Shown here: piece after piece, positions 4,502-55,979 of the stretch
How the letters are laid out: each line of letters opens with the position of its first letter
How positions within the stretch are numbered: position 1 is the stretch's first letter
From: a virus
Taxonomy: Duplodnaviria > Caudoviricetes
Direction: 5' to 3' (one strand)
IMG/VR virus record: IMGVR_UViG_3300020045_002573
Span: 1 to 55,979 of that record
DNA: 55,979 bases
Translations under genes and position numbers: made by a program
The notes under the pieces: model-generated
Databases searched by the model: none
Told to the model about the DNA's origin: nothing
What the model saw: only the letters and a program-made list of their open reading frames with translations

Positions 4502-4843
4502 TTATTCAATAATTGCCTCCTGGTAAGAAAAATTTAGTTTCAATGGGACATAGTCGAAGTTATTTCTATCCCACCGCAAAATATTGATTTCATCGTCGTA
4601 TTCCAACGCTACGGACATGCAGATTCCACACAACGCAGGATCACCCACCAACAAGAGATAGTCACCCGGTTGCCAGTTGGACAACACTCGGCGAGCGTGT
4701 TCAATCAACTTGTCTCCGTTGTAATTCTTACCCACCGAGGAGAACACATCCTTCAATACTCCGAACTTCTCTGCCGCGTTCATGTTCTTACGGGTGTCGT
4801 TATAAACCACCCAGCACGTTTGCTTGTTTCCAAAATTGCTCAT
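4502..4843 (-). CDS. Hypothetical protein next to the DNA polymerase
   Basis: 113 aa; ATGA-coupled to the polymerase; DYLLLVGDP motif. Confidence 0.7.
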   Translation of the reverse strand: MSNFGNKQTCWVVYNDTRKNMNAAEKFGVLKDVFSSVGKNYNGDKLIEHARRVLSNWQPGDYLLLVGDPALCGICMSVALEYDDEINILRWDRNNFDYVPLKLNFSYQEAIIE

Positions 4844-6681
4844 GATTTTACCTTCCTAGGTTTCCTGGTTTTAGGAGGAGGCGTAACCAGAGCGATTTGT
4901 TCTTCAGTGAGGAAATCTTTACACCCAAGGTTAATCGCTATTGATATGGCTTCCTTTAGATAATAATTATAGTCCAAATCGATAGGATGGGTTACTTTAT
5001 TTTCTATCACCATACACGCCTTGGCCCCATCGGTCTTCGGCACCTTGTTTCCATTCTTACGATATGTCAGAGGAGGTAAAATCTCGGTAGTTTGATACCA
5101 ACGGACCACTTTGCCAAGGTATTCTTCCCCTTGAACCCCTCCGCCCGTAACCGAACGCGCCGAGATGAAATCCGTGAAAGGCGCAGCCTTGATAGTTTCC
5201 ATGAATGGAACCCCTTTAGCGAGCCATTCACATACCGCCACTGCGCACACAGAGGCTGTTGGATTCTTCTTAAGGTCAAGAGGCGCATATATTCCTTTCG
5301 CTTTCACTTTACGGTCAGTCTTCACAGCTACGTAGTTATTGACATCCTTCATCGCCAATACGCGGTAGGGCGTGTATTCAAAGTCGAAACCGGACTTCTC
5401 CGAAAAGGCCGAAACCACGTTTTCTACCGTTTGTTTGAGCGTCTTAGGGTAAGCCATAGCTATACCGTCGGTGTTGGCCGAAAGCGCCACTGCACCCACC
5501 TTCTCCAGCTGTTCTATGAGCATTAGCAGCGTTAGCTGGCCGGTCAAAGTGATAAACAAACCGAGCTCGGGATTGTAGAGAGACGACCAGCGTGACAACA
5601 GCTTCCCGAAAGTACCGTTGATAGGTACTTTGAGGTTCTCGGCCATTTCCTTGTCGCCCGAGCTCTTGGCATCCAACCGACGGTAATAGACTTTGCTGTA
5701 CTCCCGAGTCAATTCCATATCGGTGTTTTCCAACTTGATACCCCACTTTACCCAGATACTCGGATAGAATGATGCGGCATCAATATCTTCTACGACATTG
5801 TATTCGTCTGCCAGGTGACATACCTTCTTGTCATGAGTGGAATGAATACCTCCCACGCCGAGCTGATAGGTTCCATTGTTGAGCTTGACAACCTGCTTAC
5901 TCAGGAATTCCGGCAGTTCTACGTGCCCGGTCTTCGAGTTCATAGGGTAAACGGTATCAGCTATACGAGCACATAGTTCCTGCAAGTGAGGAGCCTCAAA
6001 AGAGATATACTCCGGCAACGTGTAGGCGATAGACGGAGGCACCTTCGGCTTGGCTTTGCGACCTCCGAGCCTCTTTATGAACGCGGTTTCAGCCATCTGC
6101 GTGTCAGACTTACTACGTAGATCAATCCCATATTCCTTGCTCATTGACACTCGTAGCAAGAGTTGCTTTTCCAACCGTTTGAACAGTTCCTCCGTAGTGT
6201 CAAGGTCATTCTCGCAATACCGATCCACCTCTTCACATTGCTCATCTGTCAATGATTCGATATCGTGCTCGTACGGTAGGTCTTTCAGCCACCTCATATG
6301 CATACGTGCGCCGTAAGCCTTCAAACCTACGAAACTCGGCGCTACCTCAATCAAGTCAATGTGATCGAACTTCAATGGTGGAAGGCCGAACCGACGCTCT
6401 ACCTCCCACGGTTGCATCTCGTGTTCAATGATAGAGTTAGCGATCATCTTCACCGTATGAACGTCTTTACCGGACAATACGGCAGAAATGATCGGAGCAT
6501 CGAACTTGATACCGTTGAACGACACGAAGGTACAACCGGAGTTCATCACCTCCCGCAAACGAGAGATGGCGTCTTCCTCGTGTAGCCAAATCGATATGAT
6601 GTTCCGGTTCTCTAGCACCCTACCCTTGAACAGTAGTCTTCCACCTAAAATCTCGGTGTCGAATACGATAGTCTTGCTCAT
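4840..6681 (-). CDS. Family B DNA polymerase with 3'-5' exonuclease
   Basis: Exo I FDTE, Exo II FNGIKFD, Exo III YCENDL; polymerase motifs DAASFYPS, KVPINGTFGK, NTDG. Confidence 0.88.
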   Translation of the reverse strand: MSKTIVFDTEILGGRLLFKGRVLENRNIISIWLHEEDAISRLREVMNSGCTFVSFNGIKFDAPIISAVLSGKDVHTVKMIANSIIEHEMQPWEVERRFGLPPLKFDHIDLIEVAPSFVGLKAYGARMHMRWLKDLPYEHDIESLTDEQCEEVDRYCENDLDTTEELFKRLEKQLLLRVSMSKEYGIDLRSKSDTQMAETAFIKRLGGRKAKPKVPPSIAYTLPEYISFEAPHLQELCARIADTVYPMNSKTGHVELPEFLSKQVVKLNNGTYQLGVGGIHSTHDKKVCHLADEYNVVEDIDAASFYPSIWVKWGIKLENTDMELTREYSKVYYRRLDAKSSGDKEMAENLKVPINGTFGKLLSRWSSLYNPELGLFITLTGQLTLLMLIEQLEKVGAVALSANTDGIAMAYPKTLKQTVENVVSAFSEKSGFDFEYTPYRVLAMKDVNNYVAVKTDRKVKAKGIYAPLDLKKNPTASVCAVAVCEWLAKGVPFMETIKAAPFTDFISARSVTGGGVQGEEYLGKVVRWYQTTEILPPLTYRKNGNKVPKTDGAKACMVIENKVTHPIDLDYNYYLKEAISIAINLGCKDFLTEEQIALVTPPPKTRKPRKVKS

Positions 6682-7040
6682 TTTGCTAAGCGCCAGTGGG
6701 TGATGTTTTTGAATTCATCGATATACCACGTTACTTGGCTGGCGCGTACTGATCTATACTCTTCCCCATCAGCCCATTTCACATCAATCTTAGTGTCGCC
6801 GTCTACAGGACGTTGTCCAGTGTTCTTCGTCCAAGGCCGTTTGTTCTTGGCACGACGGTTCCAGGCTTCGATGGCTTCGCGCACAGTCGGTCGTGCTCCG
6901 CCGACAGCCCCGCAGCCTCCTTTATTGAAGTTGCAGTTAGCTATTTTTGAGTTTGAATTTTCATCATCCTCATAGAGATCGCCGATTGTGATGACATCTA
7001 TCTGGTCTGATCCACAGAACGGACATTTCTTGAGTTTCAT
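6678..7040 (-). CDS. Lar-like restriction alleviation protein (Zn ribbon) with C-terminal extension
   Basis: LKKCPFCGS...CGA.G...EAIEAWNRRA signature. Confidence 0.75.
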   Translation of the reverse strand: MKLKKCPFCGSDQIDVITIGDLYEDDENSNSKIANCNFNKGGCGAVGGARPTVREAIEAWNRRAKNKRPWTKNTGQRPVDGDTKIDVKWADGEEYRSVRASQVTWYIDEFKNITHWRLAK

Positions 7041-7216
7041 GATTCATACATCCATTGGTTGTAAGGGTTGTCACGCTCAAGCTCTTCTGCCGGGTAGCCT
7101 GCAGGAACTAGAGGCTCGAAGCAACATTCGTGTTCGTAACAGTACGGACCTTCGTCTGGAGGCATTTCATTATTGCTGTGCTTCTTGCACTTGATGTTGT
7201 AGCATTCGATGGTCAT
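7037..7216 (-). CDS. Small Cys-rich hypothetical protein (59 aa)
   Basis: MTIECYNIKC...NPYNQWMYES; fills the gap exactly with ATGA overlaps on both sides; not in the ORF track. Confidence 0.6.
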   Translation of the reverse strand: MTIECYNIKCKKHSNNEMPPDEGPYCYEHECCFEPLVPAGYPAEELERDNPYNQWMYES

Positions 7217-8160
7217 GGCTTCACCCAGCTCAGTAATGTAGTGATAGGTACTTCGAACCCGGCTGCATTCTTGTGTCCGCCACCACCGAAGGCTTTGGCG
7301 ATAGCGCTCACGTCGTAGTCACCGTTGCTGCGCAGGCTGCAGCCGCACTTGCCGTCCTTGCGGATAGACCAGAGCAGACCGAACGTACCACTCTGATTGG
7401 CTAGCTCGTGACCTACGTCGCTGGATAGATGGGCTGGGCAGTTGGACATGAGGCCGGAGAATGAGGTGTAATGTGGAATGTCTCCGCAGTGACCTGACTC
7501 CCATCCAGTAATAGTGCTGAAGTCTACAATCGTGCAGTCCATCGCCGTTCCCTTGACCACAGTTTGTACGTTCTGGTCGTGGGCGCGGAGGATAGCCTTA
7601 CCCGCCTTGTACATCGGCGTTAGGTCTGAACACGCCAGATCTTCCCATTGCTCGAAGTTCCACGGGGTTCCTGACCATAACGCCTTATTCAACTCCTTTG
7701 TGCCATCGAGTTTGAACTGCCAGCGGTCATAGTCGTCGATGTGGCTAATCAGTGCTGGGATTACAGTACCTGGATTGAAATACTCCCAGGCGATTAGTGC
7801 GCCAGAGCGATTGTTGTCCAGGATAAAATGACTACCATCAACATAGATAGCTTCATACTTCTTGCCCTCCACCATGTAATCTACCGCCGCGCCACCCAAC
7901 AGCGATTCAAACGCGGTTTTGTGATGGTCAAAAAACACAACCTTCTTGGCGATAGCCGTCAGTACCACTAGGGTTTTAGAAGGTAAGCTGAAGTCCAGAA
8001 TGTAAACGTCGCGACCTCTACCGTCTTCGGTATTCCATTTCTCAGCCTCATCGTAACGCATCGGCAGGTACTCAGCCTCATCGCCTAAGACCGTCCAGGC
8101 TGCGAACGCTGCGCCAAAGCCGTCAGTGCAGTTGGCGTGATAGATAACTAGCGGTTTCAT
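7213..8160 (-). CDS. DHH/DHHA1 phosphoesterase
   Basis: YHANCTDG, ILDFS, FDHH, DDYDRW, SLRS and GGGHKNAAG motifs; start moved to the ATGA-coupled ATG at 8160. Confidence 0.85.
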   Translation of the reverse strand: MKPLVIYHANCTDGFGAAFAAWTVLGDEAEYLPMRYDEAEKWNTEDGRGRDVYILDFSLPSKTLVVLTAIAKKVVFFDHHKTAFESLLGGAAVDYMVEGKKYEAIYVDGSHFILDNNRSGALIAWEYFNPGTVIPALISHIDDYDRWQFKLDGTKELNKALWSGTPWNFEQWEDLACSDLTPMYKAGKAILRAHDQNVQTVVKGTAMDCTIVDFSTITGWESGHCGDIPHYTSFSGLMSNCPAHLSSDVGHELANQSGTFGLLWSIRKDGKCGCSLRSNGDYDVSAIAKAFGGGGHKNAAGFEVPITTLLSWVKP

Positions 8161-8654
8161 TGCTCTTCCTCCCATTCTATTTTGATGGTGGCGACATAAA
8201 AAGTATCCACCTCTCTCTTGGCGAGTTCCTCTGTATCATGAGCATACTGGCCAATCTCGCCACCCTTGTAGATGTTAATCCACCCTTCCCTCCTAACCTT
8301 ACGGGGAGATTTAATCCAGGATAGGTTCTCTAAGAACGCTCCCGCCGTGTAGTCTTCGGATTGGACTATTACACCTTTCTCGTATTGATCTACTGCCGTA
8401 ACGGTATCTCTCGCACGGTGATACAGCGTGTCACCTTTATATACAGGCTTATCCTCCACCCAGGCTAGGGGTTTCATACGAAACTCATTCACGTTGGTAG
8501 GTATCATGAACACATTTTGTACATCTTTGACCAATATCTTACCTGTGGTGTCGGGGCCGTCGATATACGTATATTCGTGATTCCCGCACATCAACTTAAC
8601 ACCGGCCATCGCAGCTATCGGATCGAACCGTTTCAATTTACTGAAGTCCATCAT
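8157..8654 (-). CDS. Hypothetical phage protein
   Basis: REGWINIY...ATIKIEWEE C-terminal motif common in phage small proteins. Confidence 0.7.
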   Translation of the reverse strand: MMDFSKLKRFDPIAAMAGVKLMCGNHEYTYIDGPDTTGKILVKDVQNVFMIPTNVNEFRMKPLAWVEDKPVYKGDTLYHRARDTVTAVDQYEKGVIVQSEDYTAGAFLENLSWIKSPRKVRREGWINIYKGGEIGQYAHDTEELAKREVDTFYVATIKIEWEEEQ

Positions 8655-9091
8655 TCGCCTCCTTGATTCACGTAGGCTGAAGTAGCTTCACCTTCATTCT
8701 CTTCCTCGAACTTTTCGATGATCTCTTTGAGCTGAGCGTGAGCCTCGTACAGCTGATCAATACGTTTCCAGTGCATGATCAAATCAATGATGCAACGGTC
8801 GCGATGTACGATCTTGTTGTCTTCAATGAATCGGTTGAACATACCGTCCTTGCGATTCACGCTACGGAGAATACCCACACCTTGCTGAACACTCTCGATA
8901 CGCTTCTCCACAATGTGAAGAGCTTTTTCAAGGTCTTGAACCCCGTTCTTCTTACGCCACCGAGTCACGTATTTGGATGCGTTGTATTCCAGATTAGGTA
9001 CGCTAGCGCCGATACAATAATCCCAGTGACCTATTCCACCTTTAGGAACCTGGTAATGGGTTCCAGCTACCTGACGAGAATTAGCGTTCAT
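8651..9091 (-). CDS. DUF3310 (SaV / T7 gp1.7-like) protein
   Basis: QVAGTHY...KYVTRWRKKNGVQDLEKA signature. Confidence 0.8.
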   Translation of the reverse strand: MNANSRQVAGTHYQVPKGGIGHWDYCIGASVPNLEYNASKYVTRWRKKNGVQDLEKALHIVEKRIESVQQGVGILRSVNRKDGMFNRFIEDNKIVHRDRCIIDLIMHWKRIDQLYEAHAQLKEIIEKFEEENEGEATSAYVNQGGE

Positions 9092-9579
9092 TTCACTTGC
9101 TCCTTGATGTTATCAAAAAACTGCTTTTCGGTTCCTACTAGATTCATACCTTCAGCGTAACTGATATAGCGATCAAATACCAACGCCATCTTCGTATTGC
9201 CACGTTGAATCTCTTCCATACAGAATAACGCACCCTGACCGATATCCGCCAGCTTCAGGATACGAGCCTCGGCCGGAGTCAAAGCCTCTGGACCCCAACC
9301 TGAATGTTCCAGGATAGTCTCCTCGATAGCATTCACCTGATCACCGATACCGAACATCCGTTTACTTGGCGCGGGGATGTCTCCGGTTTGATGCTCGGCG
9401 AGGTCATGAACCAGAGCCGCGAACACCAAGTTGATGGAAGGCGTATCCGGCGACAACATACACGCCAACAAAGCCACTCCATGAGAGTGATGACCTACGG
9501 TTTCCGGTACCAGGGTAGTCACGGTATGATAGCGACGGACGTTAGCGCCATCTAGAAGGAATTGCACTTGAGGATTCAT
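9088..9579 (-). CDS. HD-domain deoxynucleotide hydrolase (YfbR-like)
   Basis: VRRYHT...ETVGHHS...LVHDLAE..TGDIPAP.K...LKLAD. Confidence 0.82.
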   Translation of the reverse strand: MNPQVQFLLDGANVRRYHTVTTLVPETVGHHSHGVALLACMLSPDTPSINLVFAALVHDLAEHQTGDIPAPSKRMFGIGDQVNAIEETILEHSGWGPEALTPAEARILKLADIGQGALFCMEEIQRGNTKMALVFDRYISYAEGMNLVGTEKQFFDNIKEQVK

Positions 9580-9640
9580 TCATTTCTCCTGTTATTTGTT
9601 AAGTGCCCCCATTATACCTGAACAGGGGCACCGAGGCAAC
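9580..9640 (-). promoter_or_regulatory. Sigma70-like promoter with conserved leader
   Basis: Minus strand TTGCCT-17-TATAAT(9611-9616)-GGGGGCACTTAACAAATAACAGGAG; a GTGCCCC/GGGGCAC inverted pair brackets the -10. Confidence 0.7.
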
Positions 9641-9642
9641 AA

Positions 9643-10644
9643 CTATTTTACCTTAGCCTTCTCTCGGCGTTCGATCCATTGAATCGTAGCGATCCGCCAG
9701 TCTGGGTCATGAATCTTTTCAGCCCAGTTCATACCGCTAGAGGTCTTCTCCTTACGGCTCTTGCTCACCATCGCCATAGGATAAGCGGTGTAACGGAAGA
9801 AGTCGGGGTAGACTACGTCGTAAAGGAAAGGGTTATCGCAGAAAAGCTCGGCGTTATTCAACCAATCTTTCCATTTACTATTGTCTAATCTAGAGCAACG
9901 ACTCATCATAGGTGTGGAATTGACAACTCCTCGCTTGTAGTAATCATACTCGGTGTCAATAGGTGGGTTTTCCAGGTGTTTCTTAGCGTCGTACAACTCC
10001 GTGTAGAGGTGAAGGTTGTTGCTGAATTGACGATACTCGCCTACCTCAACGTCGGTGGCAATCGCTACGAACTCCATCATGAAGCTGAAATGAACCGCGT
10101 TGGCGCCGTAACACCCGTACCAGATGTCATTGGAGCGGTTCAATACGGTCATGTTCAACTTACCGTTACGAATCTCAAAGAACACTTGAGTGTTGCACGC
10201 CATGTCCTTAGTATTCTTGGTCAGGTCCGCTGGATCCCACATTTGCATCACGGCTCGGCGCGTCTTGGGATCCTTCTTCAAGAGTTTGATGATCTCCGAT
10301 AACTGATCCACTCCGAAATGCTCACGCCAACGGTGACCATACGCGGCATTGAACACTTCACCATCATCGGAGTATTGACCTATTCTGGAATTGAACAGTT
10401 CCGGGAACTTGACATCCCGACGACCCGCCATCATCCAAATGGATTCCATCAGGTGAAAGATCGGGTTAGCGTCACGCTCCGGCCAGAACAACACCCGTTC
10501 GCAAGGCTTCTCGTATATAGTCATCACCGGCTCCGGGAATACCAGGACCGGGCCGTTGCGGGACTCTTCCTCTACTCCCATGACACGTAGCTTCCAGAAG
10601 GCTTCAGCGATACCTTCATTCACATTTCGGACGCGAATTTCCAT
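9643..10644 (-). CDS. Thymidylate synthase-superfamily enzyme, probable dUMP hydroxymethylase
   Basis: RRAV.QMWD, catalytic Cys in DMACN, RSND, GANAVHF (Asn at the dUMP-specificity position), NLHLY; located beside hypermodification genes. Confidence 0.82.
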   Translation of the reverse strand: MEIRVRNVNEGIAEAFWKLRVMGVEEESRNGPVLVFPEPVMTIYEKPCERVLFWPERDANPIFHLMESIWMMAGRRDVKFPELFNSRIGQYSDDGEVFNAAYGHRWREHFGVDQLSEIIKLLKKDPKTRRAVMQMWDPADLTKNTKDMACNTQVFFEIRNGKLNMTVLNRSNDIWYGCYGANAVHFSFMMEFVAIATDVEVGEYRQFSNNLHLYTELYDAKKHLENPPIDTEYDYYKRGVVNSTPMMSRCSRLDNSKWKDWLNNAELFCDNPFLYDVVYPDFFRYTAYPMAMVSKSRKEKTSSGMNWAEKIHDPDWRIATIQWIERREKAKVK

Positions 10645-10645
10645 G

Positions 10646-10822
10646 TTATTTCCTTTCCCGGTTAGCCCACAGGCTATAGCTTTTAACCACTATGAATAGA
10701 GGCCATAAGAGACCTACTACGAATGACGCCCAAATGTCGATAGGATCACGTGGGTCTTTTAACTCACGGAACATGAGCATTAACGTCAATAGAGCGTAAA
10801 TCAGTATATAGTTATATTCCAT
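10646..10822 (-). CDS. Small membrane protein (58 aa)
   Basis: AGGAG RBS; MEYNYILIYALLTLMLMF...VVGLLWPLLFIVV with two hydrophobic stretches; not in the ORF track. Confidence 0.55.
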   Translation of the reverse strand: MEYNYILIYALLTLMLMFRELKDPRDPIDIWASFVVGLLWPLFIVVKSYSLWANRERK

Positions 10823-10831
10823 GTTATTCTC

Positions 10832-11737
10832 CTAGTAAGCGGTCTCATGAGTATATGTGGATTTAGGAGACCCTTCAAGATTTAACGCTTTCCAGTACTT
10901 GAAAAGCTCACACATGCAGTTTTGAATATCGTGAAGTGATACGTTATCCAGGTCCAACTGTTCAGCTACTTCTTTCCAGATCACAACTAGAGCTTGATTG
11001 AAGTCTTCTTGTTTCCAAAGGTGACCTAGCTTCTTACCGTAAAGACGATTGAGTCCGCGCTGACTTCCGGGACCCATAGGTGCCCAAGTATAAAGGTCTT
11101 TCGCATGACCTAATTCATCAAAGTAGTACGTCAGGTCGGCGGCAACTTGCCCTGACATGAACGAACTGAACCCATAGTGCTCGGTAAGCGCCGAAACAAG
11201 GGCTTCTACGCGGTTCTCGGCCGCCGCAGCACGTATTCTAGGCGCATCTTTAGCTAACGGTAACAGGAACTTGCGAGCTACCGTCTCGACCTTACTAGAA
11301 CCCTTCTCGTGACCTGGAAATTGCATGTACGCACTTCCCCAGACCTTCAAACCTTGAGCCTTGAGATCATCCAGCACCACGATGAATACGTCAGGGTTAA
11401 AGTCTTCGGCGTTTTGCGGTATGGCGCCATTTACCAGCAAAGCTATTATTGTTGGGGGCCAATTGATATACCGAGCAATAGCGGATACGAACCAGAGATC
11501 TTCACCGTCGTTCATCTTGTATTGATTGAACATGTTAGCGATCATCCACTGAGACATCTTGTCGTCTCGCCGGCGGACATTACAGAAGCGATATTTAGCG
11601 AGTATTGGATCAGGAGTCCAGGGAGCCGGCAGGTTACGCTCTTTCTGCAGCCGAATGACCTCACGCTCGTATACCCAGTAGAGCACGTCGTCTATACAAG
11701 GGTTACCTGGAACCGGAGTGTTGAAGGGATTAGCCAC
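10832..11737 (-). CDS. aGPT-Pplase1 / 5-hmdU DNA kinase helical-domain protein
   Basis: PWTPDPILAKYRFCNVRR.DD signature, F.SGQVAADL, GPGSQRGL, QNCMCE..KY. Confidence 0.82.
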   Translation of the reverse strand: MANPFNTPVPGNPCIDDVLYWVYEREVIRLQKERNLPAPWTPDPILAKYRFCNVRRRDDKMSQWMIANMFNQYKMNDGEDLWFVSAIARYINWPPTIIALLVNGAIPQNAEDFNPDVFIVVLDDLKAQGLKVWGSAYMQFPGHEKGSSKVETVARKFLLPLAKDAPRIRAAAAENRVEALVSALTEHYGFSSFMSGQVAADLTYYFDELGHAKDLYTWAPMGPGSQRGLNRLYGKKLGHLWKQEDFNQALVVIWKEVAEQLDLDNVSLHDIQNCMCELFKYWKALNLEGSPKSTYTHETAY

Positions 11738-12305
11738 GTTCGGCTCCTTTGAAAATAGCCATCACTTCCTCATAGGCGTTAGTGTGGTCAATCGCTCGTA
11801 CGTCGTAACCGAGTTTATCCAGAGCCTTTGCCGTAGACATGGTCTGAGTCCATTTGTCGCGGGTATTCTTCTCATTCAGCGGGCGCTCATCACCTCGAGC
11901 TAGACGACGTGCCTTGACACGCTCGATACAAGTTTCGACAGGTGTCGTGAGTATGGCGAAGCAAGCCTTACCCGTTTCTTGAATAGTTTTAGTTACAGCA
12001 CCCTTGGGTCCAGCCGCCGAAGCCAGGAGACCTTCCATGAGTACATGACCTCCTTCTTTCCAGAACCCTACAGCTCGATCAGCCGCAGTTTGTTGTTCGT
12101 TTATAGCGTCACACCCTCCGCATTTTGTTTCATATTTACCCACTAGATAAATTGGATGATTAAGATTGGCATCCACCTTATAACCTAGAACCTTACCAGC
12201 GGAATCAAGTACTTTTTCATGAGGAAAGTTATTCAGGATAGTAAAAGCAATCGTCGATTTACCTGATCCCGAAGTTCCACGGATGCTGCAAATAATATTA
12301 GACAT
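11730..12305 (-). CDS. P-loop kinase, probable 5-hmdU DNA kinase component
   Basis: IRGTSGSGKST Walker A, GKY...CGGCD, LMEG, C.ERV.ARR..RG; overlaps the aGPT-Pplase1 gene. Confidence 0.8.
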   Translation of the reverse strand: MSNIICSIRGTSGSGKSTIAFTILNNFPHEKVLDSAGKVLGYKVDANLNHPIYLVGKYETKCGGCDAINEQQTAADRAVGFWKEGGHVLMEGLLASAAGPKGAVTKTIQETGKACFAILTTPVETCIERVKARRLARGDERPLNEKNTRDKWTQTMSTAKALDKLGYDVRAIDHTNAYEEVMAIFKGAERG

Positions 12306-13047
12306 TTTGATTCTCCTTTGCGCGTTGATGTTGAAGTATTGCTTTTTCTCTAATCTTTTGCTTTGTTTCTTCAGATCTCTTTTGTCCTCTTGTTTTAGCC
12401 ACTATTTTAGCTATGGTTTCGGGATTTCTAGCTCTTATTTTTTGAGCTTCCAACTGTTCTGGTGTTCTTTTCTTACCTATCAGCTTTGCCACTCTCTTTG
12501 CAATGAGCTCTTCGGGCTGCTTTTTACCTAGTTTCGCGGCAGACATCTTAGCTCTGGTTTCTGGGTTCAATGCCGAAGTTTTTAGCTTCAAATTTGCTGC
12601 TCTATCAGGATTATTACGGTACGATTCCTGCGTCGCTTCGGAATGCTTCTTTCTATTTTCTTGGTCTGAAAAATGTAAAATCTTGCTAGCTGAGTTTTTA
12701 GCCCTAACTTCACTTCTTTTAGCCGGGTTACTTTCACCTGTCATTCTAAGTCTTAGGATTTCCTTCCACCTAATTCTTAATGAGCTGTAAACTTTAGCCC
12801 CGTATTGACGATATCCACTCATAAGATTTACAGCTTCTACCAGACTATCATTATCTGGATAAATTTTCACCAATAGTAGGTGAGCCAAAAAATGAACACG
12901 AGCGGGAACATAAAAAGCATTTCCCTTCACATAGGTTCCACCAAAACATCCCGGTAACTTTCTATGTCTTTCGGTATATACCCCAAATGGCTTTTTCCAA
13001 GACCCGTATTTTTCAATCAGATTATTATAAAGATGTTGATAATTCAT
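12298..13047 (-). mobile_element. Free-standing HNH homing endonuclease with NUMOD3 repeats
   Basis: MNYQHLYNNLI...ERHRKLPG..GG...N...ARVHFLAHLLL.KIYP followed by repeated (H/R)SEET..K(M/I)S units; AT-rich; has its own promoter. Confidence 0.8.
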
Positions 13048-13059
13048 TTGATTAATCCA

Positions 13060-13111
13060 AGTGGTTTGCTTAGTTTAATTATACCTGATCTATACAAGAA
13101 AGCAAACCACT
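13060..13111 (-). promoter_or_regulatory. Promoter nested in a 12-bp inverted repeat upstream of the endonuclease
   Basis: AGTGGTTTGCTT (13060-13071) / AAGCAAACCACT (13100-13111); minus strand TTGCTT-16-TATAAT, with the -35 in one arm and the -10 in the loop. Confidence 0.6.
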
Positions 13112-13115
13112 AAAT

Positions 13116-14150
13116 TTAGTCATCAAAAACAAAAGGTACTCTACCCGTTTCGCGGTACAGATTTTGCAGCTTCTTGGACAGCGTCTTTGATCCATATTGC
13201 GGATGCGAAGGGTTGCATTCAATCCGTAAAGATTCAGGTAGATACTTTTTACGCGCCTCCCAGAACATGGTCAAATCCAACGAAGGGTTCTTTTCAGCGG
13301 TTTCAAGTAGCCGTGAGTACAACATGTCATTGTACACGGAAGGATAGCGACGGTTAGGGCGGTGCCATGACTTGTAGCAGCATAGAGTTGATTCTAGAGT
13401 TTCATACCCCACGTCGCCGATAAAGTCTTTACCTTTGAATCTTTCTTTAGCTTCACTCAGTAACTTTTCACCTTCAAGCTCTAACCAATTCAACATCTTC
13501 GGTGTGTATTTACCGTCGAAGTCCGGATTTAACTTATCATGCCAATCGAGTTCCTCGTGTCCTAATAGGATACACAAACCGTTTCGGTGTGATTTGGAAC
13601 CGGAGATATCTTTCAGCATAAGGGTGTCATATTCGAAATTCAACACCCCGCGTCCGGCTATCTTGACAAACTCTAACCCTGACCAAGCTCCTAGGCGACC
13701 TAGTGAATGAAGTTCATTGCGTACTCGATTCCAAAGGGTAGTGAAGTCCCCTGTATATAAGGCTTCTAGGGAACCGTACTCTTTCACTTTTTTACCCAAT
13801 ATACCTATCGCCTTGGGGCATTCCACTTTTTGCCATTTTCTATCGCTATCAAAAGGCAAAGAGTGCCAGTTTTCATTGAACCACGTATTGAATTGTATCC
13901 AATCTTCATCTGTTTTAGGAGGTTCTGGTAACTGCTCCAATATAGCGACTGTGGTAGGAAAATATTGAGTCAGGGAATTGATAGAAGCCGCCCACAACCT
14001 CTGTTCAATACCCCAATTCAGCTTCTCCGAAAAGTAAGGAATCAGTTGATAAACCGCTCCAGGGTGGGCGCGGTACTTCAAATGAAACTCGTAGAAGTGT
14101 AAAAAGGTTTCTCTACGATTCTCTTTGAGTCGGTAATCCGTATCGGTCAT
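13116..14150 (-). CDS. Amino acid:DNA transferase (aGPT-Pplase2 family)
   Basis: DYRLKENRRETF..FYEFHLKY..HPG, GR..AW..LE, SGSKSHRNGL, TLESTLC.YK...RYP.VY.D; cluster context. Confidence 0.78.
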   Translation of the reverse strand: MTDTDYRLKENRRETFLHFYEFHLKYRAHPGAVYQLIPYFSEKLNWGIEQRLWAASINSLTQYFPTTVAILEQLPEPPKTDEDWIQFNTWFNENWHSLPFDSDRKWQKVECPKAIGILGKKVKEYGSLEALYTGDFTTLWNRVRNELHSLGRLGAWSGLEFVKIAGRGVLNFEYDTLMLKDISGSKSHRNGLCILLGHEELDWHDKLNPDFDGKYTPKMLNWLELEGEKLLSEAKERFKGKDFIGDVGYETLESTLCCYKSWHRPNRRYPSVYNDMLYSRLLETAEKNPSLDLTMFWEARKKYLPESLRIECNPSHPQYGSKTLSKKLQNLYRETGRVPFVFDD

Positions 14151-14689
14151 TTCTTCACCCCGCTTACCGACAAATCTTGATTATATCGACCTCGTATCCC
14201 GTAGCCTTTATTTTCTGGCACAGGTAAGCTTCTATGAAAAATCATCTGCCCGATTCTACAACCGTCATCTAGCCGAATAGTGTGCCATTGAGTTAGGTTT
14301 TTCAACTCTAAGGTTAGAACGCTACCATGCCAGTAAGGGTCACACCAAGTAGCTAGAGCGTTTTCTAATCCAATTCTAGCACCAGAGCTATTCAACTTAA
14401 ATTCAGCAGAGATGTCCGCAGGTAGGTTAAACTTCTCTGTAGTATGAGCTAGTATGAATTCACCCGGTCGTAAATCATAAAAGTTTCCAGTTATGTTTTT
14501 CTTCTCCATATTCAAAGAATGTTTATCTTTTAGGGATACGGTCTGATTACCCTCGCTAGATCTCTCCACCAGGATATTGGCGCCTAAATGTACATCTATA
14601 CTAGTGCCGTTTACATCTTCTAGCTTTACTCCCTCTACAACACCTTTATCCACCAACTCGCATAATTCCTCATAACTTAGTAAGCCCAT
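14147..14689 (-). CDS. dcd: dCTP deaminase (trimeric dUTPase superfamily)
   Basis: SIDVHLG, LRPGEFILAHT.E, SSGARIGL, DP.WHG..TLEL, RIGQMIF, GRY.QD. Confidence 0.82.
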   Translation of the reverse strand: MGLLSYEELCELVDKGVVEGVKLEDVNGTSIDVHLGANILVERSSEGNQTVSLKDKHSLNMEKKNITGNFYDLRPGEFILAHTTEKFNLPADISAEFKLNSSGARIGLENALATWCDPYWHGSVLTLELKNLTQWHTIRLDDGCRIGQMIFHRSLPVPENKGYGIRGRYNQDLSVSGVKK

Positions 14690-15654
14690 CACGCCACCTC
14701 CTTAGCAGTATTGGTATAGAACTTCTCAATTACTTTCATATCTGGTGCCGAACCCACGATCCAGAACAAAGTCTTGTTGTCCGATTGAATCCACCCATTC
14801 TCTTTCAGCCAGCGAATCATTTTGGCCTCGTATACCGGATGGAAGGTAATACCGTCAAAGCTCTCTTTGAAATGGTCGGTATACTTAGCGTATCCGGTTT
14901 CATGTAGACTGTAATACTTCAATACGAACGGTAGGTTGTCCGGATCAACACCGATGTATTTCAGACGCGTATTGAGCCATTCCCGCTTATTAGGGCCGAT
15001 CTCCATAGCGAATACGGTCTTCACATCTTTAGGATCTCGGTTCAATCCCAGGATAAGCGAACAGATGGAATTACAAGATCCGGTCGGCATGATGACGGTA
15101 GTTACCCCTTTCGGAATGTTATCCACCTGACGAGCACCTACCTCATGGAACTTCCTCACCGTTTCCGCATCATATTGCGTGTGATCCACTGTTATACCAT
15201 AATGCACGACCAGGGAATCGGGACGCGTGAGTTCATCCACTCTTCGCTGAAGTATTGGGTTATAAGGTCCGGAGGCGTACTCGAACGAGGCTCCGAATCC
15301 ATGAGCAATCGCAGGACTTGCGTGTCCCAAGACTGTCTCGGGTTTGGAATAGACGACCAGTCGGGAGGGGAGTCCGTAGTGGGCTCCAACGATAGCCGAC
15401 ATGAGGAGTTGGGGTGATTGAAGAGAGGCACCGGACAAGACATGAGTTTTACCCTCACGGAAACGGTTCATGTACCAAATCAACTGACGACACTTGGAGC
15501 CGTTGGGGCCACCATAGCCCAAAGGAGCGAAGCTGTCCTCACGTTTGAACCAAATACCCTGATGGTTTTCCACCGGAGTCAGGTCGCCCAGGTGCTCTTC
15601 CCATTTGATCTGGTCGCGATCAAGCGATAACGTTTGAAATATCGAAGTGGTCAT
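14689..15654 (-). CDS. Fold-type II PLP-dependent enzyme, probable DNA aminoacyl-base decarboxylase
   Basis: LTPVE...FKRED...GGPNGSKCRQ (PLP lysine), SPQ, PTGS, HPVYEAK, LFWIVG; located in the hypermodification cluster. Confidence 0.8.
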   Translation of the reverse strand: MTTSIFQTLSLDRDQIKWEEHLGDLTPVENHQGIWFKREDSFAPLGYGGPNGSKCRQLIWYMNRFREGKTHVLSGASLQSPQLLMSAIVGAHYGLPSRLVVYSKPETVLGHASPAIAHGFGASFEYASGPYNPILQRRVDELTRPDSLVVHYGITVDHTQYDAETVRKFHEVGARQVDNIPKGVTTVIMPTGSCNSICSLILGLNRDPKDVKTVFAMEIGPNKREWLNTRLKYIGVDPDNLPFVLKYYSLHETGYAKYTDHFKESFDGITFHPVYEAKMIRWLKENGWIQSDNKTLFWIVGSAPDMKVIEKFYTNTAKEVA

Positions 15655-17980: not shown

Positions 17981-18502
17981 CTATTTGTCTAGAAGGTTAA
18001 GTATCGAAATCAGCTTTGGATAGAACTCGGCGGCGCTCTTTCCATCCATCGCAAGAACCTCGTCAGGTGTCTTGTTTCTCCACTCTTCAAAAGTGAAGCA
18101 TTTGCATCCGGCAATCAGCACGTTGTCAGCAACAACTGTCGTGTAGCTCATTCCAGTTATCACAATAGGAGTCTTCGACACCCACGCATCGCCAGACACC
18201 CACGCATCGCCAGACACCCACGCATTGCCAGTCACCCGCGCATTGCCAGACACCTGCGCATTGTCATACACCTGCGCATTGTCATACACCTGCGCATTGT
18301 CATACACCTGCGCATTGTCATACACCCGCGCATCGCCAGACACCCACGCATCGCCAGACACCTGCGACAGATTCGATTCGTTTTCGATCCAGCCGCCACA
18401 ATCGCCAGATGACACCACACCAACGATTGTCACAAGGGCGCGAATCCGCTTTAGCGTGCGCCTGCCCACAACCATCTCTTCGCCTGTAAATTCGTATTTC
18501 AT
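17981..18502 (-). CDS. Hexapeptide-repeat (left-handed beta-helix) phage protein
   Basis: MKYEFT...L.RIRA...GGWIE.E.NLSQ followed by about 10 (S/Y)(G/D)(D/N)A(W/Q/R)V repeats. Confidence 0.8.
   Translation of the reverse strand: MKYEFTGEEMVVGRRTLKRIRALVTIVGVVSSGDCGGWIENESNLSQVSGDAWVSGDARVYDNAQVYDNAQVYDNAQVYDNAQVSGNARVTGNAWVSGDAWVSGDAWVSKTPIVITGMSYTTVVADNVLIAGCKCFTFEEWRNKTPDEVLAMDGKSAAEFYPKLISILNLLDK
18177..18368. repeat. 18-bp coding tandem repeat
   Basis: Variants of ACACCTGCGCATTGTCAT / ACACCCACGCATCGCCAG in tandem. Confidence 0.9.
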
Positions 18503-18519
18503 GATATACTCCTCAGTTA

Positions 18520-18783
18520 TTAGTTAGTTGATTCACCAGAGCCGCCGCAGAAACCGCAACGCGTACCGTCATACATACCTTCGCCAGAGCCGTTGCAGTC
18601 TTTGCAAATGTTAGGTTCATCCTCGTCTTCATCTACTTCGCATTGGCAGTCGTCGCAGTGACCTTGAAGATTCAGATTGACGGCGTCATACCACTCACGG
18701 CAGTGTGAGCACATCTGATAACCTCGCTCCAACATCTCTTCTTCGGTGTTGATCAACTCGAATTCAAGGTTTTGAGTATTCAT
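18520..18783 (-). CDS. Small Cys-rich Zn-finger protein (DnaJ-like CxxCxGxG repeats)
   Basis: CSHC, CDDC, CKDCNGSG, CGFCGGSG; AGGAG RBS. Confidence 0.7.
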   Translation of the reverse strand: MNTQNLEFELINTEEEMLERGYQMCSHCREWYDAVNLNLQGHCDDCQCEVDEDEDEPNICKDCNGSGEGMYDGTRCGFCGGSGESTN

Positions 18784-18854
18784 TTTCGGCTCCTGTTATT
18801 TGTTAGATGCCCCTATTATAGTTCATGGGGGGCAAAGAAGTAAAGCATTATTTT
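18784..18854 (-). promoter_or_regulatory. Early promoter (copy of the 19824-19862 repeat) with conserved leader
   Basis: Minus strand TTTACT-18-TATAAT(18815-18820)-AGGGGCATCTAACAAATAACAGGAG. Confidence 0.7.
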
Positions 18855-53452: not shown

Positions 53453-54592
53453 ATGAGTATTTGGGAAGACTTACTAAGCGGTGCCAGCGACTTAGGCGGC
53501 TACTTTACAGGTGGCGACAGTTGGTCAAGTATGACGGATAGCGACTGGAATGACCTGCTAGGGGGAAGTGGCGACTTGTCCGGCACTGGAGACCTGTCAA
53601 CGCTTGACGACTCCGTGTGGTCGCTGGGAGACACGTTTACAGGCGACGTGCCAGACGACGCATGGGATACTGTATTGAACGTAGGTAGCGGAGACGGCTA
53701 TTCCACGCTATCAGACGAAGATCTATTTGCAGCCCTTAGTGATACAGGGCTGCCAGGCTATAACGCGCGCGGCGAGTGGATAGGCGGGGTCACTAGCGGT
53801 GGTGATGGGGGCTCCATATTCGAAGGCCTCGTGAACAACACGACGGACGCGGACGGTAACCCACTCACTGGCGCTGATTACGCAGAAGGCTCTGATATAC
53901 TACCTGGGTATGACGCAGCAGGTAACTGGGTAGGCACCGGCTCCAACGGTAGATCTATATTCGAAGATGAGAACGGCAACTCCGTTATCAGGAACACGGC
54001 TGACGCTAACGGTAACCCTCTGACGGGTGGCCAGTACGGTGGATCAACCCCAGGTGGGCTTCCGGTCACAGGGGGCGGAACAGGTACCCTACCCAGAACC
54101 GGCACGGGTACAAATACAGGGGGTGCGACCCAGCCGCTGTCCAATACCCAAGGTGCTTTGAACTTAGCTGGTCTACTGGCTATGCTCGCTGGGTTGAATG
54201 ACAAGAGTGCAATTGCTACCGCCGAAGCTCAAAAGCTGGGCAAGACCGGCTCGGTTACAATCCATGACATCAAAGCTAACCCGATGGCTTGGAAGCCTAT
54301 GGCTAACGGTGGCGGAGTGCGGGGCGTGTTGTCTCACGTGCGGGCCAACCCTGGCTTGATAGCTGGTCGGCAGAGTGGTCAAGCTGACGGTGTGCCTATC
54401 ATGAGTTCTCATGGCGAGTACATCTTTGATGCGGACACCGTATCCGCGCTAGGTGACGGTAACACCGAGGCAGGTGCAGGACTGCTTGATAGAATGCGCG
54501 AGAATATACGTAAGCACAAGCGTTCAGCCCCGCTATCGTCTGTTCCTCCCAAGGCTAAAGACCCGATGACCTATTTGAAAGGAGCCAAATAA
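53453..54592 (+). CDS. Internal virion protein
   Basis: Asp/Gly-rich low complexity with an internal duplication; C-terminal G..D.VP.M.S.GEY.FDA.TV.ALGDG...AGA..LD.MR domain. Confidence 0.65.
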   Translation: MSIWEDLLSGASDLGGYFTGGDSWSSMTDSDWNDLLGGSGDLSGTGDLSTLDDSVWSLGDTFTGDVPDDAWDTVLNVGSGDGYSTLSDEDLFAALSDTGLPGYNARGEWIGGVTSGGDGGSIFEGLVNNTTDADGNPLTGADYAEGSDILPGYDAAGNWVGTGSNGRSIFEDENGNSVIRNTADANGNPLTGGQYGGSTPGGLPVTGGGTGTLPRTGTGTNTGGATQPLSNTQGALNLAGLLAMLAGLNDKSAIATAEAQKLGKTGSVTIHDIKANPMAWKPMANGGGVRGVLSHVRANPGLIAGRQSGQADGVPIMSSHGEYIFDADTVSALGDGNTEAGAGLLDRMRENIRKHKRSAPLSSVPPKAKDPMTYLKGAK

Positions 54593-55979
54593 TGGCCTCG
54601 TTGAGCGAAATTAAAGACTGGCTCGTGGCTAATCCTACAGCCACCCCCGATCTGATAGCCTCCACTGCCGCCGCAAATGGCGTCACTGCGGCCCAGATAG
54701 ATGCCGCCATGACGGGCACCCCTGGCTGGACGGGCAACACCGCGCAGTCCTACGTGGCGCAAAACCTCCCGACTATGCAGCAGCAGTATGGGACCGACTT
54801 TGGCGTAAGCTATCAGCCTAGCGCCGCTGAACAAGCGATGGCAAAGGCTGCGGCATCAAACACCCCTGGCGTGATGTCTACGGGCTATATTGACAACAAT
54901 GGGCGATTCCAGCAATACCCGACCACACCTACGACGCCGACCACAACCCCGGCGAATATCACCAATATTGCGCCGTCGAATCCGTACGCGCCGACCGACG
55001 TCGGTCCTCCCGTCCCGCCTGGCTACGTTCCCCCGGTAAACAACAACGTCATCTACCCGATCAATCCGGACGGTAGTACTAACCCCAACCCGATTTTACC
55101 AGGAGGCGGTACGACAGGTGGAGGCCTTCCTACGGGAGGCGGTACGACAGGTGGAGGCCTTCCTACGGGAGGCGGTACGACAGGTGGAGGCCTTCCTACG
55201 GGAGGCGGTACGACAGGTGGAGGCCTTCCTACGGGAGTTAGCGCCGAGACACAAGCCTTACTAGATGAGATTGCCAGACTCAACGCGCTTAGGTCTCAGA
55301 CGCCTACCGATACCACATTCAACACGGGTGTTACAACTCAGAACCTGATGCCTGGGTACTATACCGACACCGCCGCCTCGGTTGCGGGTGGTATTCAAGG
55401 TATGTTGGGTAACGGGGGTTACCTGAACTCCGTAATGGACAACTGGTACAACGCGGCGGCGGGTACAGGGCCGCTAGCGTCTTACTCCCAGTACGACCCC
55501 AGTCGTATGCAGGACTTCATGAATCCCTACGTGGATAATGTGGTCAATGAGCAAGCTCGTCTGTCCAATCAGAACCTGTTTGACAAAGTCATTCCAGGTA
55601 TCAATAGTACGTTTGTAGGTAGCGGGCAGTTCGGTTCCGACCGCAATGGGCAGTTCATGAACAACGCAGTACGCGACCAGAACTACAACCTGTCAGGCCT
55701 TCAAGCTACCACGTTGATGAACGCCCAAAACGCAGCCAACACTCAGTACGCTGACTGGACTAAGCAAGGTGCGCTGCAATCGCAACAGGACTTCAGTAAC
55801 TGGCTCACGCAAGCGAACTTCCCGATCAACTCACTGGGCGCGTTGGCCACCGACACGGCGAATATTCGTCCGTCGCAACCCATGGCTACCAACACGACCA
55901 CCTCTACGGCTGACCCAGCGCAGAGTACCTCAGGTCTAACCGCTGCCCAGCAAGCCGCACTAGGGGTAGCAGGATTGAA
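54592..55979 (+). CDS. Partial internal virion (DNA ejection) protein, open to the window end
   Basis: ATG at 54592 after AAGGAG; frame open to 55979; FMNPYVDNVV...G.FGS.R motif; absent from the track because it has no stop. Confidence 0.75.
   Translation, partial: MASLSEIKDWLVANPTATPDLIASTAAANGVTAAQIDAAMTGTPGWTGNTAQSYVAQNLPTMQQQYGTDFGVSYQPSAAEQAMAKAAASNTPGVMSTGYIDNNGRFQQYPTTPTTPTTTPANITNIAPSNPYAPTDVGPPVPPGYVPPVNNNVIYPINPDGSTNPNPILPGGGTTGGGLPTGGGTTGGGLPTGGGTTGGGLPTGGGTTGGGLPTGVSAETQALLDEIARLNALRSQTPTDTTFNTGVTTQNLMPGYYTDTAASVAGGIQGMLGNGGYLNSVMDNWYNAAAGTGPLASYSQYDPSRMQDFMNPYVDNVVNEQARLSNQNLFDKVIPGINSTFVGSGQFGSDRNGQFMNNAVRDQNYNLSGLQATTLMNAQNAANTQYADWTKQGALQSQQDFSNWLTQANFPINSLGALATDTANIRPSQPMATNTTTSTADPAQSTSGLTAAQQAALGVAGL
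55102..55233 (+). repeat. Perfect 33-bp tandem repeat x4 (GGGTTGGGLPT)
   Basis: GGAGGCGGTACGACAGGTGGAGGCCTTCCTACG four times with no spacers, in frame. Confidence 0.95.

Follow-up and report, generated by a model that had tools for sequence, protein, structure and literature searches.

A predicted thymidine-hypermodification cassette in a podovirus-like phage joins an M6/PaMx11-like core to a ViI-like transferase and PLP enzyme

The window analysed here is an entire IMG/VR record, IMGVR_UViG_3300020045_002573, from an uncultured virus (linear; 55,979 bp; CheckV completeness estimated at 99%; G+C content approximately 50%). Between positions 8651 and 15654, its minus strand carries an unbroken run of co-oriented open reading frames (ORFs) that encode a pyridoxal phosphate (PLP) enzyme, a dCTP deaminase, a candidate amino acid:DNA transferase (AADT), a homing endonuclease, a P-loop kinase, a PF18723 protein, a 58-amino-acid (aa) ORF, a thymidylate-synthase (TS) homolog, an HD hydrolase and a DUF3310-like protein (Table 1). 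All ORFs of this cassette are intact, and adjacent genes overlap by 4–8 nucleotides (nt) or are spaced by no more than 68 nt. A preliminary description of the DNA had read the run as a thymidine-hypermodification cluster of mostly overlapping genes, and Pfam and PHROG profile searches bore this out, locating every gene that it named, from the PLP enzyme to DUF3310, at the coordinates it had given and all pathway genes in the one run. Its gene list was right as far as it went; it had missed the 58-aa ORF, and its ‘aGPT-Pplase1’ is the family now called HMUDK_hel (PF18723). The corresponding renaming of aGPT-Pplase2 to ADDT (PF18724) was checked together with it by scanning M6, PaMx11, ViI and Montesquieu proteins, in which the PF18723 model matched M6 gp55, PaMx11 gp50 and the Montesquieu ‘clade 1’ protein. 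Among 50,697 phage records, megablast found none that matched the 7-kb region.

To compare the cassette with characterised clusters, we used BLASTP, which showed that the kinase, the PF18723 protein, the TS homolog, the HD hydrolase and the DUF3310-like protein are M6/PaMx11-like, with 31–45% identity and a shared gene order. The PLP enzyme reached only E 0.024 with M6 gp52, and the AADT gave E > 1 with both M6 gp51 and PaMx11 gp46. A search of five characterised genomes (ViI, M6, PaMx11, phiW-14 and SP10) matched the AADT in one of them, ViI (E 1.7e-18), and the PLP enzyme was likewise significant in ViI only (E 2.8e-50), its matches in phiW-14 and PaMx11 being short, with E of about 1e-3. 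By these similarities, the cassette is a mosaic of an M6/PaMx11-like core and a ViI-like AADT/PLP pair.

The preliminary description had outlined three known routes, in which M6 attaches glycine and needs a radical S-adenosylmethionine (rSAM) isomerase before PLP-dependent decarboxylation, ViI attaches serine through its oxygen and needs the PLP enzyme only, and PaMx11 uses a flavin enzyme plus an acetyltransferase, an outline that agrees with the relevant passages of Lee 2021 (PMC8989533). Its remark that no rSAM or flavin enzyme is visible holds for the record as a whole: the rSAM family PF04055 had no match in the whole 99%-complete record, with a positive control in 14 of 14 genomes, and the DAO-type flavin enzyme family PF01266 and Tet/JBP had none there either. 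The CxxxCxxC motif, which it had proposed to look for in the rest of the genome, occurred in no credible ORF of the record, its two matches lying in short antisense or out-of-frame ORFs. PaMx11 gp47 and gp48 found nothing significant by BLASTP among the 12 proteins of the cassette region (7213–15654), a search that did not include the acetyltransferase Pfam model. The rSAM glycinyl-thymine isomerase that defines the M6-type pathway to 5-(2-aminoethyl)-2′-deoxyuridine (5-NedU) is thus missing, and the flavin-dependent lyase with acetyltransferase that defines the PaMx11-type pathway to 5-aminomethyl-2′-deoxyuridine and its acetylated form (5-NmdU/5-AcNmdU) was not found.

The 344-aa AADT candidate aligned with ViI gp247 at 24–27% identity (E 3.4e-18 by BLASTP; E 1.7e-18 over residues 4–316). 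Its AlphaFold2 (AF2) model had a mean predicted local distance difference test (pLDDT) score of 90.9, and in Foldseek the PaMx11 gp46/PUGT chains (8z2m/8z2n) took ranks 1–3 with probability 1.0 and template-modelling (TM) scores of 0.51/0.59; gp46 (8z2m) was the sole match at E ≤ 1e-3, and the helix–hairpin–helix (HhH) glycosylases AGOG and MagIII came next. At the level of the model, the AADT is confirmed to have the all-helical, HhH-glycosylase-like fold of PaMx11 gp46. The stretch E253-S-T-L-C257 aligned with E243-T-I-L-C247 of PaMx11 gp46, and E253-x3-C257 was invariant in 36 of 36 aligned sequences; Glu and Cys of this motif are both essential in M6 gp51 and ViI gp247 (PMC8989533), and Cys247 of PaMx11 gp46 is the proposed nucleophile (PMC11472151). 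Together with a homolog in the Mycobacterium phage Prince, the similarity to ViI gp247, the fold and the motif assign the protein, with predicted activity, to the AADTs, in a divergent subfamily missed by the Pfam model. As a query for the AADTs of M6, PaMx11, phiW-14 and SP10, ViI gp247 itself recovered 0 of 4 records, these clades being too distant for pairwise search.

The similarity of the PLP enzyme to ViI gp226 was much clearer (34% identity over 368 columns, E 1.7e-62 by BLASTP; 41%, E 2.8e-50 in the genome search). Its K54 aligned with ViI gp226 K92 and M6 gp52 K36, the lysines named in PMC8989533, and the Schiff-base lysine was invariant across 24 PLP homologs. The AF2 model (pLDDT 91.6) placed it closest, in Foldseek, to the D-cysteine desulfhydrase 4d8t (1.6e-11) and to the 1-aminocyclopropane-1-carboxylate (ACC) deaminase homologue 1j0a, which is also the template reported for ViI gp226 (PMC8989533). 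Judged by model and homology, it is a fold-type II enzyme of the gp226 type. In ViI, gp226 is a proven decarboxylase of O-serinylthymidine (O-SerT) in DNA and gp247 a proven serine:DNA transferase (PMC8989533 Table 1); homology to gp226 is what predicts a decarboxylase that acts on an amino-acid:thymine adduct in DNA for the window enzyme.

Among the core proteins, the kinase was 34% identical to PaMx11 gp49 (E 3e-30) and 28% to M6 gp54 (E 1.1e-6) by BLASTP. With this homology, a Pfam score above the cut-off and a Walker A motif, G10..G13-S-G-K16..T18 (GxxGSGKxT), that is invariant, the protein has the sequence features of a 5-hydroxymethyl-2′-deoxyuridine (5-hmdU) DNA kinase (5-HMUDK). The PF18723 protein was 31% identical to M6 gp55 (E 2e-37, BLASTP); its domain is fused to the kinase in SP10 gp186 (Lee 2018 Table 3), and a complex prediction for the two window proteins (score 0.00, mark 0.32) weighs neither way on binding. 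The protein also contains the invariant motif H-D-x-Q-N-C-x-C-E-x-x-K, similar to the catalytic E-x-x-L-C-C-Y-K of AADTs. Instead of a passive kinase domain, it may be an enzyme that acts on modified thymine; a profile–profile comparison of the PF18723 and AADT families was not significant (probability 0.3, E 0.23), with the Cys-containing motifs paired in its best local alignment. The TS homolog was 45% identical to M6 gp58 and 42% to PaMx11 gp51 (BLASTP), and all eight NCBIfam thymidylate-synthase models that matched it, each of equivalog rank, did so far under their cut-offs; it is predicted to be a dUMP hydroxymethylase that makes 5-hmdUMP and not a canonical ThyA. The HD hydrolase (36% identity to PaMx11 gp52, 35% to M6 gp59) is predicted to deplete competing deoxythymidine (dT) nucleotides, and the dCTP deaminase to supply dUTP/dUMP for 5-hmdUMP synthesis. 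Several PHROGs labelled ‘nucleotide kinase’, phrog_236 (1.9e-10) among them, were further matches of the DUF3310-like protein (34% identity to M6 gp61); it may be a nucleotide kinase on the way from 5-hmdUMP to the triphosphate, which the phage DNA polymerase would incorporate. For that polymerase, the best phage matches, at about 38–39% identity, were from Pseudomonas Iggy-like and Escherichia coli Seurat/9g-like siphoviruses. The homing endonuclease is an insertion between the AADT and kinase genes and stands outside the pathway.

With the AADT as the query, IMG/VR held 94 relatives, of which the best 80 (L016–L095; 40–82% identity) were taken and their loci screened by tblastn at E ≤ 1e-5. 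A ViI-type PLP gene was present in 39 of the 80 and lay within about 300 nt of the AADT gene wherever this could be measured; 16 loci were too short to tell. Homologs of M6 gp53 (rSAM), PaMx11 gp47 (flavin adenine dinucleotide (FAD) lyase) and PaMx11 gp48 (acetyltransferase) were found in 0 of the 80, a Tet/JBP homolog in 28 and a TS homolog in 3. The PF18723 protein as the query added seven loci, so that eight (L016, L106–L112) could be compared. Half of them (L016, L107, L108 and L109) had the same order, PLP–AADT–kinase–PF18723–TS–HD–DUF3310, which places the cassette on at least four other IMG/VR contigs. L016 is close to the window (82% identity in the AADT, 69% in the PLP enzyme and 71% in the kinase) and shares its homing endonuclease (65%); L107–L109 are more distant (60–63% in the PLP enzyme, 39% in the AADT) and have no endonuclease, so that the AADT gene adjoins the kinase gene. 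None of these four contains the dCTP deaminase. Because the order is kept at 39–63% protein identity, all members of the cassette are likely to be under selection. A further locus, L112 (61.5 kb), encodes PF18723, TS, HD and DUF3310 proteins and a dCTP deaminase (63%), with kinase, AADT and PLP enzyme not detected in the 16.8 kb examined; we class it as a ‘core only’ variant, of the sort that pelagiphages have been described to carry.

A phylogeny of the two enzymes, which the preliminary description had proposed as a check, grouped the PLP enzyme with ViI gp226 and placed the AADT in a separate subfamily. Both trees were quick IQ-TREE runs (LG+G4) with support from the Shimodaira–Hasegawa-like approximate likelihood ratio test (SH-aLRT) only, and their deep nodes are to be read with caution. 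The AADT tree (88 rows) had three deep groups: phiW-14 with M6 and PaMx11, ViI with Vibrio phage 1.244.A, and an 83-row subfamily that includes the window. Here the window paired with L016 (support 100), L050, Prince and Montesquieu formed the weakly supported (80) sister group of the pair, and rows with and without a PLP gene were intermixed throughout the subfamily. In the PLP tree (36 rows, three of which carry one internal stop each from the ORF boundaries chosen), the window and L016 fell in a 13-row clade (SH-aLRT 100) with ViI gp226, Vibrio phage 1.244.A and Montesquieu, and M6 gp52 formed a very long outgroup branch.

These data suggest the following pathway. The dCTP deaminase would feed dU nucleotides to the TS homolog acting as dUMP hydroxymethylase, phosphorylation of the 5-hmdUMP would follow, with the DUF3310-like protein and host kinases as its possible agents, the HD hydrolase would lower the competing dT nucleotides, and the phage polymerase would build 5-hmdU into DNA. 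After replication, the P-loop kinase would phosphorylate the 5-hydroxymethyl group in DNA to give 5-PmdU, from which the AADT (Cys257, Glu253) would expel the phosphate and attach a free amino acid by the side chain; the PLP enzyme (Lys54) would then link to the free alpha-amine as a Schiff base and remove CO2. Attachment through the side chain is expected because PLP chemistry needs a free alpha-amine, an argument that the preliminary description had made, that is Lee 2021’s own for ViI (PMC8989533) and with which homology to ViI alone among the five phages agrees. The likeliest donor would be serine, which would give O-serinylthymidine and then 5-(2-aminoethoxy)methyl-2′-deoxyuridine (5-NeOmdU). 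PaMx11 gp46 holds its glycine by Asp24, Trp146 and Lys150 (PMC11472151), and the motif of this donor site reads FGPW146IGFK150 in the glycine enzymes, FGRLSAWN in ViI and LGRLGAWS in the window. At low identity, this is suggestive of a donor site like that of the serine enzyme and unlike those of the glycine enzymes; the motifs were compared by alignment, and in the N-terminal pocket region the MAFFT alignment, at about 15% identity, is unreliable. The scanned early-region ORFs (replication/recombination proteins, ligase, DHH phosphoesterase and Lar-like protein) included no donor-biosynthesis enzyme.

We give a probability of about 0.5 to a working ViI-type thymidine-hypermodification pathway on an M6/PaMx11-like core that ends in 5-NeOmdU, in which we infer the enzymatic activities, the donor and the product. 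Several observations weigh against it, beginning with the fact that it concerns an uncultured phage known from its genes alone. PF18724 did not match the 344-aa AADT even at E 10, and a six-frame search of the genome with it was likewise empty. The model does detect M6 gp51, PaMx11 gp46, ViI gp247 and Prince gp3, and because Prince gp3, about 40% identical to the window AADT, passes the Pfam AADT cut-off with 35.2 bits, we read the missed match as the limit of the model’s sensitivity for this subfamily. Searches of PDB sequences with the AADT, both as a single sequence and as a 36-sequence profile, found nothing relevant. This failure to match the Pfam model, with the metagenomic origin of the contig, would fit a cluster that only swaps T for 5-hmdU, or that is inactive, with no amino acid attached; the intact ORFs, the catalytic residues invariant across 36 AADT and 24 PLP homologs and the cassette order conserved across contigs make this very improbable.

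A further question is that of the donor. The identity of the AADT to ViI gp247 is low, its 83-row subfamily contains no characterised member and is set off from ViI by long branches, and the pocket-region motifs of the window and L016 depart from the subfamily consensus (FDSDRKW versus WDTDRRY; GRLGAWS versus GRLSTFS) and, at several aligned positions, from ViI. Few pocket residues set donor choice: Li 2026 reports two pocket substitutions that switch a diamine transferase to glycine, and many Pplase2 clusters are uncharacterised (PMC13458397). Because two residues can switch the preference, clade-level likeness is a weak guide to the donor. It is accordingly possible, if less probable than serine, that another donor (threonine, homoserine, cysteine, or ornithine, lysine or 2,4-diaminobutyrate) enters through its side chain by the same steps, to give an undescribed base or a known polyamine-type base by a new route. 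Serine is favoured over these by the PLP enzyme, whose much greater closeness to gp226 (34–41%) and well-supported shared clade suggest a similar adduct, by the ViI-type donor-site motif and by the lack of a gene for an unusual donor among the scanned ORFs. The decarboxylation step has points against it as well: the nearest PLP enzymes by structure, a D-cysteine desulfhydrase and an ACC deaminase, are beta-eliminating, with no decarboxylases among them; the Pfam model PALP matched the window enzyme under its cut-off (E 0.0061, 16.4 bits, cut-off 35); and the PLP gene was absent from 25 of the 80 AADT loci despite flanks of at least 1.2 kb on both sides, so that the tailoring step appears to be optional in the subfamily. 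Direct transfer of free diamines is known from phiW-14 and SH-Ab 15599 (PMC8989533 Table 1; PMC13458397), and the PLP enzyme might instead make or alter the free donor, or perform an elimination or replacement, leaving an intact amino-acid or amine adduct as the final base. We consider this unlikely, as the proven decarboxylase ViI gp226 has the same fold assignment and template (1j0a; PMC8989533) and itself scores under the PALP cut-off (30.7 bits), the window enzyme is a clear gp226 homolog that keeps the Schiff-base lysine, and the PLP gene adjoins the AADT gene in 39 of the 80 loci.

Hypermodified thymidine stops restriction enzymes and makes DNA harder to sequence and clone; every new AADT donor so far has added a DNA base and an enzyme tool to those known. 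The kind of system described here is already known; what could be new is the donor of the AADT subfamily. This subfamily is large and has no assigned donor, it is often paired with a ViI-type PLP enzyme, its window and Montesquieu proteins miss the Pfam model, and it has cultured members (Montesquieu and Mycobacterium phages). In the texts found, supplements and figures aside, no product is assigned to it, and 5-NeOmdU is reported for Ackermannviridae only. Should the product be 5-NeOmdU, the range of that base would reach past Ackermannviridae; any other product would be a new base. We raise, tentatively, the idea that a non-serine donor is used by the subfamily, whose members number more than 80 from metaviromes and also include cultured phages of Mycobacterium and Glutamicibacter, and that, with the ViI-type decarboxylase, this podovirus-like phage would make an undescribed base; examples would be an amino-propanol ether, a cysteamine thioether or a polyamine-type base arising through decarboxylation on the DNA. 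The cassette also illustrates modular exchange, of the sort that Lee 2021 proposed (PMC8989533), with an M6/PaMx11-type core combined with a ViI-type pair for tailoring, in a podovirus lineage that has abundant marine phages among its relatives.

The surroundings of the cassette are listed in Table 1. Direct-repeat families D3/D4 form an element of 43–72 nt in three copies, which on the minus strand reads as a TATAAT box, an AGGAG Shine–Dalgarno-like sequence and a start codon; one copy includes TTGCCT-17-TATAAT directly upstream of the HD gene, in a promoter scan that overall was not above chance. The element is probably a phage promoter/leader, one copy of which splits the cassette upstream of the HD gene. 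After the cassette, with overlapping stops, come a DHH/DHHA1 phosphoesterase gene and a gene for a 165-aa protein without a family match; the DHH gene adjoins the cassette in L016 too (48% identity) and may have a further role in the nucleotide pool. The same early operon encodes a Lar-like restriction-alleviation protein, a second anti-restriction function. Elsewhere, a 173-aa ORF contains approximately 12 in-frame tandem 18-nt repeats, and the last ORF contains in-frame, Gly/Thr-rich 33-nt repeats. This last plus-strand ORF runs off the record, as does a minus-strand ORF at its start; when the record ends are joined, the plus-strand ORF closes after 27 codons. No terminal repeat was found in the record.

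Table 1 Features of the window and the profile matches that identify them
Feature	Position	Strand	Match or detail
PLP enzyme, 321 aa	14689–15654	−	phrog_3650 2.7e-79
dCTP deaminase	14147–14692	−	PF22769 2.1e-28; TIGR02274 1.9e-23, 83 bits, under cut-off 92.8
AADT (formerly aGPT-Pplase2), 344 aa	13116–14150	−	phrog_3271 6.9e-61
Homing endonuclease	12298–13047	−	phrog_655 2.8e-28, NUMOD3
P-loop kinase (5-HMUDK)	11730–12305	−	PF18748 HMUDK_HMUD1 1e-6, 28.8 bits, cut-off 27
PF18723 protein (HMUDK_hel, formerly aGPT-Pplase1)	10832–11737	−	9.1e-40, 137.2 bits, cut-off 25
58-aa ORF	10646–10822	−	no family match at E ≤ 0.01; weak matches at E 0.01–0.05
TS homolog	9643–10644	−	PF00303 6.3e-23, 81.7 bits; phrog_5131 1.5e-112
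HD/YfbR-like 5′-deoxynucleotidase	9088–9579	−	PF12917 1e-10
DUF3310-like protein	8651–9091	−	Pfam 1.5e-4, 22.1 bits, under cut-off 24; phrog_5839 6.4e-26
DHH/DHHA1 phosphoesterase and 165-aa protein	7213–8654		phrog_4771 9.6e-73 (DHH)
Lar-like protein	6678–7040		PF14354 9.9e-8
DNA polymerase	4840–6681	−	phrog_1252 4.4e-151
Direct repeats D3/D4, three copies	1503–1545, 9576–9618, 18780–18822		
Repeated element, spans	9568–9639, 18772–18843		
TTGCCT-17-TATAAT	9639–9611	−	
ORF, 173 aa	17981–18502		18-nt repeats at 18160–18384
SU10-type adaptor, 209 aa	40808–41437		PF24175 9.5e-26
Last ORF	54592–55979	+	33-nt repeats at 55069–55266; open-ended
First ORF	1–130	−	runs off start

The virion genes support the ‘podovirus-like’ label of the preliminary description: alongside the SU10-type adaptor, the structural module is collinear with that of the cultured podovirus HTVC023P (large terminase subunit (TerL) 29%, portal 31%, capsid 38%, adaptor 28% identity; fibre repeats and a virion protein are also homologous), no specific tape-measure search having been made. 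The best TerL match (57%) came from Paracoccus phage Pkon1, a temperate siphovirus that shows no relationship beyond the terminase; it was left out of the classification. The earlier suggestion that joining such a cluster to a short-tail virion is out of the ordinary found no support, given an HTVC023P-type precedent, a PLP gene without rSAM in 39 of 80 loci and the occurrence of the same cassette on other contigs. In that precedent, reported in 2022, HTVC023P-type pelagiphage podoviruses of clades V, VIII and IX have TS and aG/PT-PPlase1 genes (with or without a 5′-deoxynucleotidase) near PolA that are M6/PaMx11-related (PMC9599517). The window differs from them in that the main text of that paper mentions no kinase, AADT or PLP enzyme in the clusters (‘pyridoxal’ occurs 0 times, ‘kinase’ for a histidine kinase only); HTVC023P itself has neither PF18723 nor the kinase, and the G+C content of the window, about 50%, is listed among the differences as well.

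Of named phages, Mycobacterium phages Prince, Lolalove and JAMaL have the closest AADT homologs (40–41% identity), in a ParB–Tet/JBP–AADT–kinase cassette. They differ from the window in making 5-hydroxymethyluracil (5-hmU) after replication by a T-dioxygenase, not by a TS homolog, and in having no PLP gene nearby; no literature report of their product was found. Nearer in content is Glutamicibacter phage Montesquieu (OV696619), in which a 36% identical AADT is followed by a fold-II PLP ‘ACC deaminase’, P-loop proteins, PF18723 and TS/hydroxymethylase, and which lies near the window in both trees; it differs in being a siphophage with an actinobacterial host. The Montesquieu paper counts the genes for the PLP and P-loop proteins among auxiliary metabolic genes, has no base analysis in the portion relevant here and states that Nanopore reads did not assemble into one contig (PMC9331655). 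MONT_41 (‘ACC deaminase’) and MONT_40 (‘ABC transporter’), directly after the AADT, look like parts of a hypermodification cassette.

With ViI (Ackermannviridae), the window shares a kinase (gp67/gp243 in ViI), AADT and PLP enzyme without an rSAM, as well as the Schiff-base lysine and the Glu/Cys pair. The ViI genes are scattered over a 157-kb myovirus genome, whereas those of the window form one cassette in a 56-kb podovirus-like genome, and the window kinase, PF18723, TS and HD proteins are closer to those of M6 and PaMx11. The latter two phages are siphoviruses (Mesyanzhinovviridae) that make 5-NedU and 5-AcNmdU/5-NmdU, respectively, and the window AADT shares only its fold with their glycine transferases gp51/gp46, the fold match being to gp46; the window also has the dCTP deaminase and homing endonuclease inserted. 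All three share the order AADT–[tailoring]–kinase–PF18723–TS–HD–DUF3310, with the DNA polymerase further on, and it is in the tailoring slot that they part: rSAM plus PLP enzyme in M6, FAD lyase plus acetyltransferase in PaMx11 and a ViI-type PLP enzyme in the window.

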